64,000 nucleotides of DNA from Escherichia phage JY01, in the sequence record OR995200.1. One strand, written 5' to 3'. How positions within the stretch are numbered: the stretch's first letter is position 1; each line of letters starts with the position of its first letter. This document shows positions 2,145 to 48,862 of this stretch, one piece after another. The notes beneath the pieces are model-generated. The model saw only the letters and a list, made by a program, of their open reading frames with translations. It had not been told where the DNA came from and did no database searches. Made by a program: the position numbers and the translations under genes.

Positions 2145-2232
2145 TTTATTCTCCAAATCTGTATCAGTAGTTGATAGTTGTATAGTACCACAGAAGAACA
2201 GTCTTGTAAACAGTTTTGTGAAAATTTTTTAG
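2145..2232 (-). promoter_or_regulatory. Early sigma70-type promoter/leader cassette copy 1
   Basis: -35 TTTACA (2205-2210), 17 nt spacer, -10 TACTAT (2182-2187), A/T-rich upstream, conserved leader with GGAG. Confidence 0.6.
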
Positions 2233-2298
2233 GGAATTCTAAAGGTCCAGAATCATCTGTTTTTCATAAGTATAGATTTATATTACTTGTATGAAAAA

Positions 2299-2316
2299 GG
2301 GACCCGGAGGTCCCTA
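2299..2316 (-). terminator. UNCG-tetraloop RNA hairpin after gene 43
   Basis: RNA-sense GGGACC-UCCG-GGUCCC. Confidence 0.45.
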
Positions 2317-2327
2317 GATTTATTCTA

Positions 2328-5024
2328 TCAGCCAAACAGGAAGTCTAACGAAGCTTTTTCTTCATAGTCCATACCAGCCGATTCACACATGCCTGCAAGC
2401 GGTTTAACAAACGATTTTTGGAACAAAGTTGAGTAGTCAATCCAAGACAGTACGTCAGAACGAATTTCTTTTGGAAGTTCTGTACCCGACGGCCAAGCAA
2501 TGCATTTGTCACCAAATGGATTTCCTTCACGCAATGGAAGAACCATTACTTTATTTCCATCCAAAATTGGAGCTACACCTAAACCGCTAACAGCTCGACG
2601 ATAAGTTAGCACACCACGAATATGGAACGGACATTTAAATCCTGGCCAACCTTTATCATCATATTTCGCTATATCGTTCGCAGTTTTTACTTCAGCAATA
2701 ACTTTATAGTCAAGTTGACGATATTCTTTCTCGAAGTTCTTGTAATATTCTTGGACAGACTCTTCACCTTCCTGAAGAATACGACGGATACTTTCTTCAA
2801 GAGCTTCTTGGACCGCTTTAGGCGTTGAACTTTGCTGAGTTTCCATACCCATGATTTTTAGATGCGGTTCAGCAAATCGCTTATCTTCCATATCATAAAC
2901 GTTCAGAGCATAACGTTTTTTCGCTTTCCAAAATCCACCAACACCCTTTGAACCAAGTGGAGGGCAAGAAATAGCTTCACGGTCCATATGCATCAGATGC
3001 TCGCGGTTATTCATATAATCACATAACTCACGATATGCAACATCAATCATAGGTTCCATCTTTTTCTTACCGAACTGATTCATGAATTCAACTAAATCGT
3101 TCTGCTCTTTGAATCGGTCAAGACCAACTTTTTCAATAACTTTATCTACACAAACATATACCGAATCAGTATCACCTGCTGCGATGAAATCTTCGCCATT
3201 AGTTCCACATACTTTATTCAGATACTCATTAATTTTACGAGCAATCCACTGAATACCGACTTGACCAAAAATTGTAATAGCAGTAGCATTTCGCAAATCA
3301 TAGTAGCGGAAATGAATATTACCAAGAGCACCGTAAAGGCTGTTAATAAGAATTTTACGGTTCAGCTGATTTGTATTAGCAAGTGTAGCCGCTTTTTCAC
3401 ATTCTTCAATCAAACTATTGAGAACAGATTCAGTATAATTCGATAGTTCATTTAAGAAATCATCACTGAACTTAACATATCGTTTAACTTCAGGTTTAGT
3501 TGAACAAGACCCTGCGCCTTTCATAATAATCTTTTTAATAGCTTCGGCATTCATTTCTTCAGCGAACATTTTCTTTTTCCAATCTTTACGCTGGAAAAAT
3601 ACTTTAGCGATTTCCTTTGGAATGATACCTTCTTGATGCTTATCATACATCCATCCATTCGGAGAACAAGAATATTCATCACTCGGTTTAGGAGCTGTTC
3701 CTGCGATATATTCATGAATTGGATGAACTTTAAACTGACCACGAATAGTCTCAGGACTAATGTTAACCTGACGAATAATGCTCGGATACAGAGACGTCAA
3801 GTCAAAACTCATAATATATCGACGAGCAATTGGTTTAGGTTCAAATACAAATGCACCCGGAAAACTTTGTTTAACGTGCGAACCTTGTTGAGGAATAACC
3901 TTATGTTCACCTTTCAATGAGTTAAAAATAATAGCATCCCAAGTTTTAATAGGACTCATTACACCAGAAAAAGGCATTTTAGCATAATAAGACATACTTA
4001 AAACTAGATCGATAAACCCGCGAATTTTATCAATTGCTTGAACTGATTCTACGTCAATGATGTTATAACTAATGTATCGTTGATGATTAGTCTCACGAAG
4101 TTTATTAATAGGACCGTCGTATGGTAATTTACCTTTTTTGGTTTCATGCTGAGCAACTGATTCCAAAGAGAATGACGGCAAATTAGTAAATGCGAATTTC
4201 TTATACAAATCTAAATAATCAAGAATAGATACGCCATCAATAGAATAAATTTCTTTGCTACCGTACATATTTTGGATAAGTTTAGATTTTACTCGACCGA
4301 TTGGAGAGAAGCGTTTCATACTGCGTTCACCAAGAACCATTTTAACACGATTCATGATATACGGAACGTCAAATCCCTCAATATTCCAACCAGTAAAAAT
4401 AGCAGGTCGTTTCTGTTCCCAAAGATTAATATATTCCATGAGCATATCACGCTCATTATCGAATGGCATATAAATTACTCGGTCAAGAATTTCTTGAGGA
4501 ACTTCATCACCACCTTCACAGTCAAGCTTAGCAGCTAACTTTGCATCCCATTTTGATACTGAACCGTACATTGAATTCAAAAGGTCGAAAACATAAAAAC
4601 GATCATCAATTGAATCGTAATGAGTGATAGCATCAATTTCATATTCAGCTTTCATTGGGTCAGGAAATTTATCACCAGTAACCTCAATGTCACAGTTAGC
4701 TACACGAACAAATTTTCGGTCATAAACAATTTCTGAACCATATGTATCACTGATATAAGCGAGTTTAAAATCGTTCATACCGAGAGCTTCGAGACCGATG
4801 TCTTCCATTCGTTTCATCCAATCTCGAGCATCTTTCATTGATGGAAATTTTTGAGGAGCACAGTTTTTACCATAGATGTCTTTGTACTTTGACTCTTCCT
4901 TACAATGTCTAAACATAGTTGGAAGATATTCTACTTCACGAGTACGTTCCTTTCCGTTTTCATCAATATAACGTTCAACAATGTTATTTCCGACTGTTTC
5001 AATAGAGATATAAAATTCTTTCAT
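2328..5024 (-). CDS. 43: DNA polymerase (family B, with 3-5 exonuclease)
   Basis: 898 aa ORF; sequence matches T4 gp43 as recalled, including the DTDS polymerase motif. Confidence 0.95.
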   Translation of the reverse strand: MKEFYISIETVGNNIVERYIDENGKERTREVEYLPTMFRHCKEESKYKDIYGKNCAPQKFPSMKDARDWMKRMEDIGLEALGMNDFKLAYISDTYGSEIVYDRKFVRVANCDIEVTGDKFPDPMKAEYEIDAITHYDSIDDRFYVFDLLNSMYGSVSKWDAKLAAKLDCEGGDEVPQEILDRVIYMPFDNERDMLMEYINLWEQKRPAIFTGWNIEGFDVPYIMNRVKMVLGERSMKRFSPIGRVKSKLIQNMYGSKEIYSIDGVSILDYLDLYKKFAFTNLPSFSLESVAQHETKKGKLPYDGPINKLRETNHQRYISYNIIDVESVQAIDKIRGFIDLVLSMSYYAKMPFSGVMSPIKTWDAIIFNSLKGEHKVIPQQGSHVKQSFPGAFVFEPKPIARRYIMSFDLTSLYPSIIRQVNISPETIRGQFKVHPIHEYIAGTAPKPSDEYSCSPNGWMYDKHQEGIIPKEIAKVFFQRKDWKKKMFAEEMNAEAIKKIIMKGAGSCSTKPEVKRYVKFSDDFLNELSNYTESVLNSLIEECEKAATLANTNQLNRKILINSLYGALGNIHFRYYDLRNATAITIFGQVGIQWIARKINEYLNKVCGTNGEDFIAAGDTDSVYVCVDKVIEKVGLDRFKEQNDLVEFMNQFGKKKMEPMIDVAYRELCDYMNNREHLMHMDREAISCPPLGSKGVGGFWKAKKRYALNVYDMEDKRFAEPHLKIMGMETQQSSTPKAVQEALEESIRRILQEGEESVQEYYKNFEKEYRQLDYKVIAEVKTANDIAKYDDKGWPGFKCPFHIRGVLTYRRAVSGLGVAPILDGNKVMVLPLREGNPFGDKCIAWPSGTELPKEIRSDVLSWIDYSTLFQKSFVKPLAGMCESAGMDYEEKASLDFLFG

Positions 5025-5062
5025 AGATATTCCTTAGTTTATAGCCCGAGTTATTAGGCTCT
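5025..5062 (-). promoter_or_regulatory. Gene 43 translational operator region (hairpin plus Shine-Dalgarno)
   Basis: RNA-sense AGCC-UAAUAACUC-GGGCU hairpin followed by AAGGA and AUG. Confidence 0.45.
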
Positions 5063-5082
5063 TGATATATTATACTCCAAAT

Positions 5083-47882: not shown

Positions 47883-47884
47883 TA

Positions 47885-48304
47885 TTACCCTTCATCAACA
47901 ATAGTATGAGTGTGGGCATTTACAATTTGCCACCAATCAAAGCGATTAGAACCATACATTGGTTTGTTCTCATTTTCTTTGATAATGTCACGGAGTTCAT
48001 CTTCGGTAGCGGCTTTCGCGATTAAATCAGCATATCCACCGCGAGGATAATAATTATCACCTGCAAAAAGTAAAAAGTTTGGTTTAATGTTATTGAACTC
48101 TTCAAGAGTAATAACTGTTCCACCAGGTTGAACAATATCTACATAACTATATCCTAATTTTTGAGCAGCATCTACTGCTTCAAGCAAGGTATCATGAGCC
48201 CATCCAATTTGGCAATCTGGCTTTTCAGATGGATTAGCCTGATAATCTGCATATACTTTATACATTTTACTCACCTTTAGAAATTTTATCCATAACGATA
48301 GCAA
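47885..48304 (-). CDS. Hypothetical protein
   Basis: 139 aa ORF; start may be an internal ATG. Confidence 0.45.
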   Translation of the reverse strand: MLSLWIKFLKVSKMYKVYADYQANPSEKPDCQIGWAHDTLLEAVDAAQKLGYSYVDIVQPGGTVITLEEFNNIKPNFLLFAGDNYYPRGGYADLIAKAATEDELRDIIKENENKPMYGSNRFDWWQIVNAHTHTIVDEG

Positions 48305-48452
48305 TTAAACCAATTAAAAATGCTACTACAAGTGAAAATACATTTTCTGCTGTAGTTAATAATCCGCATATAAATCCAACAAACATTGAAAAACTAAAAG
48401 CGGAAGCAGAAATTGCAATAGCAACATTTCGAATTAATTCACAGCGTTTCAT
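48267..48452 (-). CDS. Small two-helix membrane protein
   Basis: Start ATG 48450-48452 with GGAG; two hydrophobic segments. Confidence 0.45.
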   Translation of the reverse strand: MKRCELIRNVAIAISASAFSFSMFVGFICGLLTTAENVFSLVVAFLIGLIAIVMDKISKGE

Positions 48453-48530
48453 TTTATTCTCCTCAGTAGTTGATAGGGTAATAGTATCACTACTAAAACC
48501 CCGTGTAAACAACTTTGTGAAATTATTTTA
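48453..48530 (-). promoter_or_regulatory. Early promoter cassette copy 7 (variant with inverted repeat around -10)
   Basis: -35 TTTACA (48504-48509), -10 TACTAT (48481-48486); imperfect inverted repeat 48465-48493. Confidence 0.55.
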
Positions 48531-48780
48531 AATCTTCTAATCGTTTCTTCATCTTAGAACCATTTTTAGCGATTTCTCCTGCGTCAGAGCATAATGCTAA
48601 AAGTGCTTTAACTTTAGTTTGGTCTCCTTTAAAAGACGAAGGATCGACTGCAGCAGCAAGTTCTTTAATACGAGAGAAAAGACGCTCAGCTTCAGCTAAA
48701 GCCATTCCAAGCTTTACTTCCATACCATGAGAAGATTCAGTGATAATAGTTTCTGTAGCAAACTCTTTATAAGTTTTCAT
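48523..48780 (-). CDS. Internal-protein-like protein with capsid targeting sequence
   Basis: N-terminus MKTYKEFATETIITE followed by S; adjacent to 57B (ipI position in T4 as recalled). Confidence 0.5.
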   Translation of the reverse strand: MKTYKEFATETIITESSHGMEVKLGMALAEAERLFSRIKELAAAVDPSSFKGDQTKVKALLALCSDAGEIAKNGSKMKKRLEDLK

Positions 48781-48862
48781 TTTATTTTTCCTAATTAATT
48801 TTGATGAGGTAATAGTATCACTACCTCATCAGTGTGTAAACAACTTTGTGAAATTATTTTAA
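48781..48862 (-). promoter_or_regulatory. Early promoter cassette copy 8 (variant with 9 bp inverted repeat around -10)
   Basis: -35 TTTACA (48835-48840), -10 TACTAT (48812-48817); inverted repeat GATGAGGTA/TACCTCATC 48803-48830. Confidence 0.55.

Follow-up and report, generated by a model that had tools for sequence, protein, structure and literature searches.

The 64-kb stretch of Escherichia phage JY01 analysed here (sequence record OR995200.1; called the window) carries eight repeated intergenic blocks that resemble the early promoters of phage T4, each joined to a short leader that ends at a start codon. The window is 95–99.9% identical to hundreds of Tequatrovirus (T4-like) genomes (megablast, regions 27000–33000 and 43500–50000), and its best matches are Escherichia phage vB_EcoM-Sa45lw (99.9%; Sa45lw below) and Shigella phage SfPhi01 (99.1%). 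The T4 genome (AF158101) is collinear with the window from about 25.5 kb to more than 80 kb of T4, with many small indels. The G+C content of the window is 35%. In the window, early and middle genes occupy the minus strand as far as about 52 kb, and therefore all eight blocks are found on this strand. The coordinates are collected in Table 1, and each copy is named after its first coordinate.

The presence of the eight repeated blocks was confirmed. An earlier note on this DNA had located them on the minus strand, and all eight positions were right; a block is about 80–90 nt long, and its start coordinate is the base just 5' of a minus-strand ATG. A hidden Markov model (HMM) of the ungapped 83-nt block finds exactly these eight copies in the window (48–68 bits, E 1e-14 to 1e-20). 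The search for further copies gave a next-best site of only 14 bits, and an independent general repeat finder retrieved the same eight-block family (D1–D3). In a multiple alignment of the eight copies, 22 columns are invariant. They include GTTTAC, the G/T just before the −10 element, TA.TAT and the ATG, and similarity between the copies extends beyond the promoter hexamers into the spacer and the leader. The copies share on average 60% of the 83 nt (40–87%, with the maximum between 2145 and 44496), compared to 43–45% for ordinary early promoters of the window and 28% for random 83-mers. The pattern GTTTAC-N16-GNTAYTAT with 1 mismatch has 13 matches, all on the minus strand, when 0.29 are expected from shuffles. 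A looser promoter pattern gave 16 minus-strand matches and 1 plus-strand match against 1.4 expected, and 14 of them are intergenic promoters. A generic sigma-70 scan of the window is uninformative in such A/T-rich DNA (93 found, 87 expected), and an Rfam scan of the window detected tRNAs only, with no match at the cassettes. With a 92-nt cassette as query, matches were obtained in 706 phage records, at 8–10 sites in each Tequatrovirus genome and nearly always where no feature is annotated. Thus, the window holds most of the family.

The architecture is the same in all eight copies: GTTTAC, a 17-nt spacer, TGn (TGG or TGA) directly before the −10 element, and TAYTAT. Each of the hexamers proposed in the earlier note holds for seven copies, since −35 TTTACA is TTTACT in copy 32846 and −10 TACTAT is TATTAT in copy 16447. 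The proposed A/T-rich element upstream of −35 is likewise present in seven copies, usually as AAAATWWTTTCACAAA. The spacer sequence AAGACTGTTCTTCTGTGG is common to three copies. The open reading frames (ORFs) behind the blocks had been described as small or unassigned. PHROG places the products of seven in families without a known function and that of the eighth among internal head proteins, but not all of the ORFs are small: their sizes are 78, 58, 175, 322, 62, 87, 61 and 85 amino acids (aa) in copy order.

It turned out that every copy has a T4 orthologue at a syntenic site (HMM), upstream of imm.1, 55.6, nrdC.8, nrdC.10, mobD.5, e.8, trna.4 and ipI, respectively. The copies are 82–98% identical to these orthologues over the ungapped 83 nt, and the same eight loci are occupied in Sa45lw, RB68, sb1, SH7 and ELT1. 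These T4 orthologues are reported to have been mapped experimentally by Liebig & Rueger in 1989 and by Wilkens & Rueger in 1994/96. Our literature search for T4 start-site mapping gave nothing usable, and the DksA/T4 RNA-seq paper is silent on these genes. The T4 early promoters follow an UP/−35/TGn/−10 design (Hinton review, PMC2988021), in which the A/T-rich UP region occupies about −40 to −60. The JY01 blocks have the same UP region, GTTTAC, 17-nt spacer, TGn and TAnnAT, on the same strand and at the same loci. They differ by point changes, and the imm.1 promoter of JY01 first drives an extra 78-aa ORF; nothing essential separates the two sets. We conclude, with a probability of about 0.88, that in each of the eight blocks an immediate-early (Pe) promoter of a T4-like phage is joined to a short 5' leader and a ribosome-binding site.

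Composite blocks of this kind have been described as promoter-early-stem-loop (PeSL) cassettes. The T4/PST PeSL consensus is TTTACW-N17-TAYWAT (Comeau et al. 2014, PMC4122927), and PeSL stem-loops can overlap the −10 element (Arbiol et al. 2010, PMC2839356). The assignment to this class made in the earlier note is borne out, as all eight copies fit the consensus and each ends at an ATG. The JY01 blocks are the same intergenic composite of A/T-rich region, early promoter, Shine-Dalgarno sequence and ATG, with a stem-loop in part of the copies, and they lie in hyperplastic regions. The stem-loops stand upstream of the promoter or over −10 in both cases, and indels or swaps adjoin several copies. 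In contrast to the published PeSLs, only five of the eight JY01 copies have a convincing stem-loop, and in the other three it is weak or distant. For the PeSLs of RB49/phi1 only, promoter and terminator activity and mini-circles formed by recombination between neighbouring copies have been shown (PMC2839356); the JY01 cassettes are described here from sequence. The PeSL interpretation is already published for T4 and its close relative PST (Arbiol 2010; Comeau 2014), and the finding is correct but ordinary.

Table 1. Early-promoter cassettes and associated features of the window; genes are listed with the cassette predicted to drive them.
Feature	Position	Strand	HMM bits	T4 orthologue	Details
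Cassette 1 (copy 2145)	2145..2236	-	67.6	27027-27105	UP region; leader with GGAGAATAAAA
Cassette 1, −35 GTTTAC	2211-2206	-			
Cassette 1, TGn and −10 TACTAT	2187-2182	-			
78-aa ORF (cassette 1, which then drives imm.1 and imm)	1908..2144	-			In JY01 and Sa45lw; absent from T4
Cassette 2 (copy 16447)	16447..16532	-	53.7	41653-41732	−10 TATTAT
Gene 55.6 homologue (cassette 2)	16270-16446	-			
Cassette 3 (copy 27389)	27389..27470	-	65.2	53890-53968	
nrdC.8 homologue (cassette 3)	26861-27388	-			
Cassette 4 (copy 28822)	28822..28910	-	55.7	55335-55407	
nrdC.10 homologue (cassette 4)	27853-28821	-			
Cassette 5 (copy 32846)	32846..32926	-	50.6	58727-58802	−35 TTTACT
mobD.5 homologue (cassette 5)	32657-32845	-			
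Cassette 6 (copy 44496)	44496..44593	-	62.3	70643-70719	Long leader with GGAGAATGAAATG
e.8 homologue (cassette 6)	44232-44495	-			
Cassette 7 (copy 48453)	48453..48534	-	65.0	73519-73589	Downstream border of swappable internal-protein module
trna.4 homologue (cassette 7)	48267-48452	-			
Cassette 8 (copy 48781)	48781..48867	-	47.9	73897-73965	T4 orthologue upstream of ipI; upstream border of swappable module
Internal head protein gene (cassette 8)	48523..48780	-			PHROG 3499; body 48529-48756 replaced in T4 (ipI), SH7 and ELT1
RegB/S1 consensus matches GGAGAATAAAA	2144..2154, 28821-28831, 48452-48462	-			Exact match
Inverted repeat GATGAGGTA/TACCTCATC	48803..48830	-			Perfect 9-bp arms bracketing −10 of cassette 8
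Terminator-like G+C hairpin and T-run after gene 43	2298..2315	-			86 nt upstream of cassette 1 −35
Terminator-like hairpin after nrdH	16587..16601	-			80 nt upstream of cassette 2 −35
Terminator hairpin AGGGAGCC-TTCG-GGCTCCCT and T6	28918..28937	-			29 nt upstream of cassette 4 −35
Terminator hairpin AGTCTCC-TTCG-GGAGACT and T-run	32919..32936	-			15 nt upstream of cassette 5 −35
Additional early promoters	24461-24490, 37070-37099, 40165-40194, 43656-43685, 44202-44231	-			
Additional early promoter	32062-32091	-			GTTTAC-N17-TATAGT; upstream of 34-aa ORF

The leader was said to be identical in several copies. This is so for three of them (2145, 28822 and 48453), which carry exactly GGAGAATAAAATG, but copy 44496 has GGAGAATGAAATG. 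In the same three copies the leader sequence GGAGAATAAAA overlaps the Shine-Dalgarno sequence and matches 11 of 11 positions of the strong RegB/S1 consensus GGAGRAYARAA. These are the only exact matches in the 64-kb window, compared to 0.46 expected. The strong cleavage consensus GG*AGRAYARAA comes from Durand et al. 2006, in the form in which PMC3014915 quotes it. The three JY01 leaders match such strong sites at all positions, at the Shine-Dalgarno sequence of an early gene, while the other five of the eight copies have no exact match. Apparently, GGAGAATAAAA is a combined ribosome-binding and predicted early-mRNA shut-off signal, with cleavage expected from the match to the consensus. This double role would account for the conservation of the leader.

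The stem-loops differ from copy to copy. An inverted repeat across −10 had been noticed in two copies, at 48803–48830 and at 48465–48493. The first is strong (RNA fold −17.4 kcal/mol, z = −6.0), but the second, in copy 48453, is weak, with 5-bp arms or an interrupted stem (z = −2.3). The T4 orthologue of copy 48453 has a perfect 7-bp pair, and this hairpin is degraded in JY01. Copy 2145 has no stem-loop inside the promoter proper (z = +0.9), and copies 27389 and 44496 have weak or distant hairpins only. G+C hairpins with a T-run, similar to terminators, are located 15–86 nt upstream of −35 in copies 2145, 16447, 28822 and 32846. Within the spacer of cassette 4 there is also a palindrome, CATAAAGCTTTATG (28865–28878, minus strand), which fits the PeSL subclass with a "stem-loop between the boxes".

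Six further early promoters of the same class, at 24461, 32062, 37070, 40165, 43656 and 44202, do not have the extended similarity, and two of them carry strong inverted repeats. A perfect 14-bp repeat, AGTTGGCAAGATTA/TAATCTTGCCAACT, surrounds the −10 element of 32062–32091. A perfect 10-bp repeat, ATAGGCTCAT/ATGAGCCTAT, is found round that of 44202–44231 (RNA fold −18.1 kcal/mol, z = −7.1), the early promoter of the gene at the e.7 position. The hairpins were surveyed in 209 distinct GTTTAC promoters (79 clusters) from the window, the six relatives compared for gene content (T4, Sa45lw, RB68, sb1, SH7 and ELT1) and T4-like loci of IMG/VR. IMG/VR holds few Tequatrovirus genomes: a gp57B search gave 36 loci, mostly of other T4-like genera, and an exact-pattern scan gave 12 stretches on 5 contigs. 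These loci served for the hairpin statistics and the check for concerted evolution, and breakpoints between near relatives were taken from elsewhere. Perfect arms of at least 7 bp bracket −10 in 21 of the 79 non-redundant clusters (27%), compared to 3.4% in a partner-swap control, in which the left and right promoter halves were exchanged between promoters. Thus, an inverted repeat across −10 is a general feature of about one quarter of T4-like early promoters.

The arm sequences of these hairpins differ from promoter to promoter. Among arm mismatches outside TGn and −10, the sense-strand G.T exceeds A.C (16 vs 7, p = 0.047); pairs within the conserved TGn and −10 inflate the tally (40 vs 7) and were excluded. 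At two arm positions of promoter 32062, the window has Watson-Crick pairs where the relatives show G.T wobbles. A covariation test by alignment was dropped, since the stem register varies between promoters (index sums 41, 43 and 49). The differing but complementary arms, the G.U bias and the Watson-Crick pairs at 32062 are hints that the repeats across −10, here those at 48803–48830, 44202–44231 and 32062–32091, could be selected hairpins acting in the sense-strand read-through RNA and not by-products. We regard this as a tentative idea, the odds being rather against it. It is possible that such hairpins serve as attenuators of incoming upstream transcription or as 3'-end protectors of the upstream message after a RegB cut in the GGAG that follows about 20 nt later. 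The stem-loops themselves are already published for RB49/phi1, and only the quantification, the strand bias and the RegB link would be new.

The structure of the cassettes and their T4 orthology suggest how they may work. The host sigma-70 RNA polymerase would bind right after DNA injection through the UP region, GTTTAC, TGn and TAYTAT, and the transcript would start a few bases past −10, in the conserved CTATCAA stretch. In three copies GGAGAATAAAA in the transcript would act both as Shine-Dalgarno sequence and as a site for the RegB endoribonuclease, and early messages may be switched off within minutes. Hairpins that stand upstream (four copies, as the terminator of the preceding gene) or bracket −10 (one strong, one weak) would insulate the units from read-through. 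Insulation of this kind has been published for the RB49 PeSLs. Exact runs of up to about 50 nt would let the copies serve phage homologous recombination as portable linkers, and small genes may then be inserted, lost or swapped beside them.

We assessed whether gene content changes at these sites, as the earlier note proposed in calling them sites of modular shuffling with recently acquired genes behind them. The blastn alignments of the window to the six relatives were chained, and every gap of at least 40 bp was listed over 108 gene junctions. For all 13 early promoters counted, 9 of 13 junctions carry a breakpoint, compared to 33 of 95 others (odds ratio (OR) 4.2, one-sided p = 0.019). When homing-endonuclease and intron events are removed, the counts are 9 of 13 and 26 of 95 (OR 6.0, one-sided p = 0.004). 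These counts omit promoter 32062, whose junction has no breakpoint; including it gives 9 of 14 by arithmetic, with the test not rerun. Relative to T4, the window lacks mobB, mobC, the nrdD intron with I-TevII, and ipII/ipIII (13198–13223, 18000–18020, 19296–19299, 29953–30916, 40143–40150), and other ORFs occupy the mobD position of T4 (29949–30934). The tRNA cluster (45969–46987) has 10 Rfam tRNA matches, while Sa45lw is annotated with 11 tRNAs and T4 with 8, and the region shows several indels among the relatives.

Several events lie directly at the cassettes. Inside the leader of copy 28822, at 28831..28848, SH7 has an insert of 275 bp (one ORF) and ELT1 an insert of 493 bp (two ORFs), each followed by a second promoter-like block, which gives a cassette-ORF-cassette structure. 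At the internal-protein locus, homology to T4 ends at 48528, the edge of copy 48453, and resumes at 48757, 24 nt inside the internal-protein ORF. These first 24 nt of the ORF and both flanking cassettes remain homologous, while the JY01 internal head protein gene was not found by tblastn in T4, SH7 or ELT1. As cited in PMC2839356 and PMC4122927, Repoila et al. 1994 described conserved regulatory blocks that flank the internal protein (IP) genes of T-even phages. As far as these citations describe it, this is the locus at which copies 48781 and 48453 flank the JY01 internal head protein gene, and its body has given way to unrelated sequence in T4, SH7 and ELT1, whereas homology persists in promoter, leader and the eight initial codons, which encode the capsid-targeting peptide. 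At copy 16447, the 55.6 homologue is 66–71% identical in aa to those of T4, Sa45lw, RB68 and ELT1 and 93–95% identical to those of sb1 and SH7. The DNA identity falls by up to 0.19 across this copy, and together these two observations suggest an allelic exchange that ended at the cassette. Ordinary early promoters also stand at such events. The gene at the e.7 position (43657–44175), between promoters 43656 and 44202, is replaced in T4 and SH7, T4 ipII and ipIII are located in the leader of promoter 40165, and ELT1 is without nrdC.4 right after promoter 24461.

A number of observations weigh against a special role of the eight copies in gene exchange, and some against the reading of the blocks in general. 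For the eight-copy family alone, the association is not significant (5 of 8 junctions vs 37 of 100, OR 2.8, one-sided p = 0.15), and 33 of the 42 junctions with a breakpoint have no early promoter. Shifts in DNA identity are no larger at promoter junctions than elsewhere (p = 0.91), and the events among the six relatives are not phylogenetically independent. Copies 16447, 27389 and 32846 have no gene-content breakpoint in these relatives. All six relatives have six of the eight downstream genes, five of these with 92–100% aa identity and 55.6 with 66–95%, so that recent acquisition holds for only two, the 78-aa ORF and the internal protein gene. The indel of the 78-aa ORF is bounded by an 8-bp direct repeat, ATGAAAAT, at two start codons and not by cassette homology. 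T4 and ELT1 lack the 157-aa ORF 44736–45209, which lies just upstream of copy 44496, and retain one repeat copy. The indel of this ORF is bounded not by the promoter but by 36-nt terminator-containing direct repeats, and it looks like recombination between duplicated terminators. The T4 GenBank record contains no promoter features, and for this reason HMM and alignment were used to show the orthology. For the JY01 promoters, the start sites, strength and timing are predictions. The proposal of modular shuffling therefore stands in part, with events at several copies and the pooled enrichment on one side and the non-significant family test on the other. The association with breakpoints is modest and belongs to the early promoters of the window as a whole, not to the eight-copy subfamily. 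Gene insertion, loss or swap is demonstrable at four or five of the eight sites, while most copies and the genes behind them are stably inherited.

Some features of these genes are worth recording. The 36-nt repeats next to the 157-aa ORF (44696–44731 and 45255–45290) are 92% identical, with a terminator-like hairpin inside. Upstream of gene 49, 63-nt direct repeats (20330–20392 and 20543–20605, 83% identical) flank a 58-aa ORF (20347–20523). ELT1 lacks this ORF (gap 20362..20610); it is a second small gene with copies of a duplicated regulatory stretch on either side. The 78-aa ORF starts with MKIVMGCLAVCLVALVAVPF, which resembles a signal peptide or lipobox, and adjoins the superinfection-immunity genes imm.1 and imm. 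The nrdC.10 homologue has sub-threshold Pfam matches to AAA and STAND NTPase domains at residues ~96–203.

The blocks could also be alike through function alone, each being an optimal sigma-70 promoter with a ribosome-binding/RegB site and without any role in shuffling. In that case the nearby breakpoints would merely reflect that indels of whole genes have to end in intergenic DNA; indeed, 38% of all junctions carry a breakpoint anyway. The stability of the copies at their loci between JY01 and T4, the conserved downstream genes, the family-only test and the lack of excess identity shifts at promoters agree with such a constraint. However, the copies are also alike in the 17-nt spacer, which reads AAGACTGTTCTTCTGTGG in three of them, and in roughly 25 nt of leader, and no such similarity is seen in the six other promoters of the class. 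Constraint alone also does not predict the cassette-ORF-cassette inserts of SH7 and ELT1, the internal-protein swap that ends exactly at cassette edges, or the pooled promoter enrichment (p = 0.004–0.02). The leaders are lineage-specific, as concerted evolution expects. In the 24 nt after −10, the e.8 and trna.4 promoters agree at 15 of 24 positions within the window and at 21 of 24 within L012, compared to 13 of 24 (e.8) and 11 of 24 (trna.4) for the orthologues across the JY01 and L012 lineages. Thus, constraint alone seems a rather unlikely explanation. Because the identity extends to spacer and leader, which the polymerase does not read base by base, and because the leaders are lineage-specific, the data point to copies that probably have a common origin and stay similar within a lineage through occasional exchange (concerted evolution), and not just to convergence. 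Every copy resembles its own T4 orthologue most, and therefore there is no sign of recent homogenisation.

It is very improbable that the cassettes are mobile elements in their own right, with the stem-loop or the conserved core as the target of a dedicated site-specific recombinase or nuclease. A protein that recognises the stem-loop is a speculation of Arbiol et al. 2010 (PMC2839356), and inverted repeats across −10 are enriched. But we saw neither terminal inverted repeats nor target-site duplications nor a recombinase gene associated with the cassettes. In T4, Sa45lw, RB68, sb1, SH7 and ELT1 the copies occupy the same eight loci. The copy number is steady (8–10 per Tequatrovirus genome), and the hairpin arms vary from one promoter to the next, which leaves no shared sequence to be recognised. 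For these reasons an element resembling a miniature inverted-repeat transposable element (MITE), or one driven by a recombinase, was rejected. A chance product of A/T-rich intergenic or low-complexity sequence, in favour of which there is the G+C content and nothing else, is refuted by the HMM E values, the 13 pattern matches against 0.29 expected, the strict strand bias, the ATG ends and the 706 phage records.

In practical terms, variation among the genes behind the cassettes is limited to two of the eight, the 78-aa ORF and the internal protein gene, and the conserved leader is explained by the predicted RegB/S1 site. The window is a further instance of a picture that has been in the literature since 1994, 2010 and 2014, with nothing outside known T4 biology. 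The cassettes illustrate how a T4-like phage would fire some dozen insulated early transcription units simultaneously, and they would explain the plug-in exchange of small accessory genes, including injected anti-defence internal proteins.

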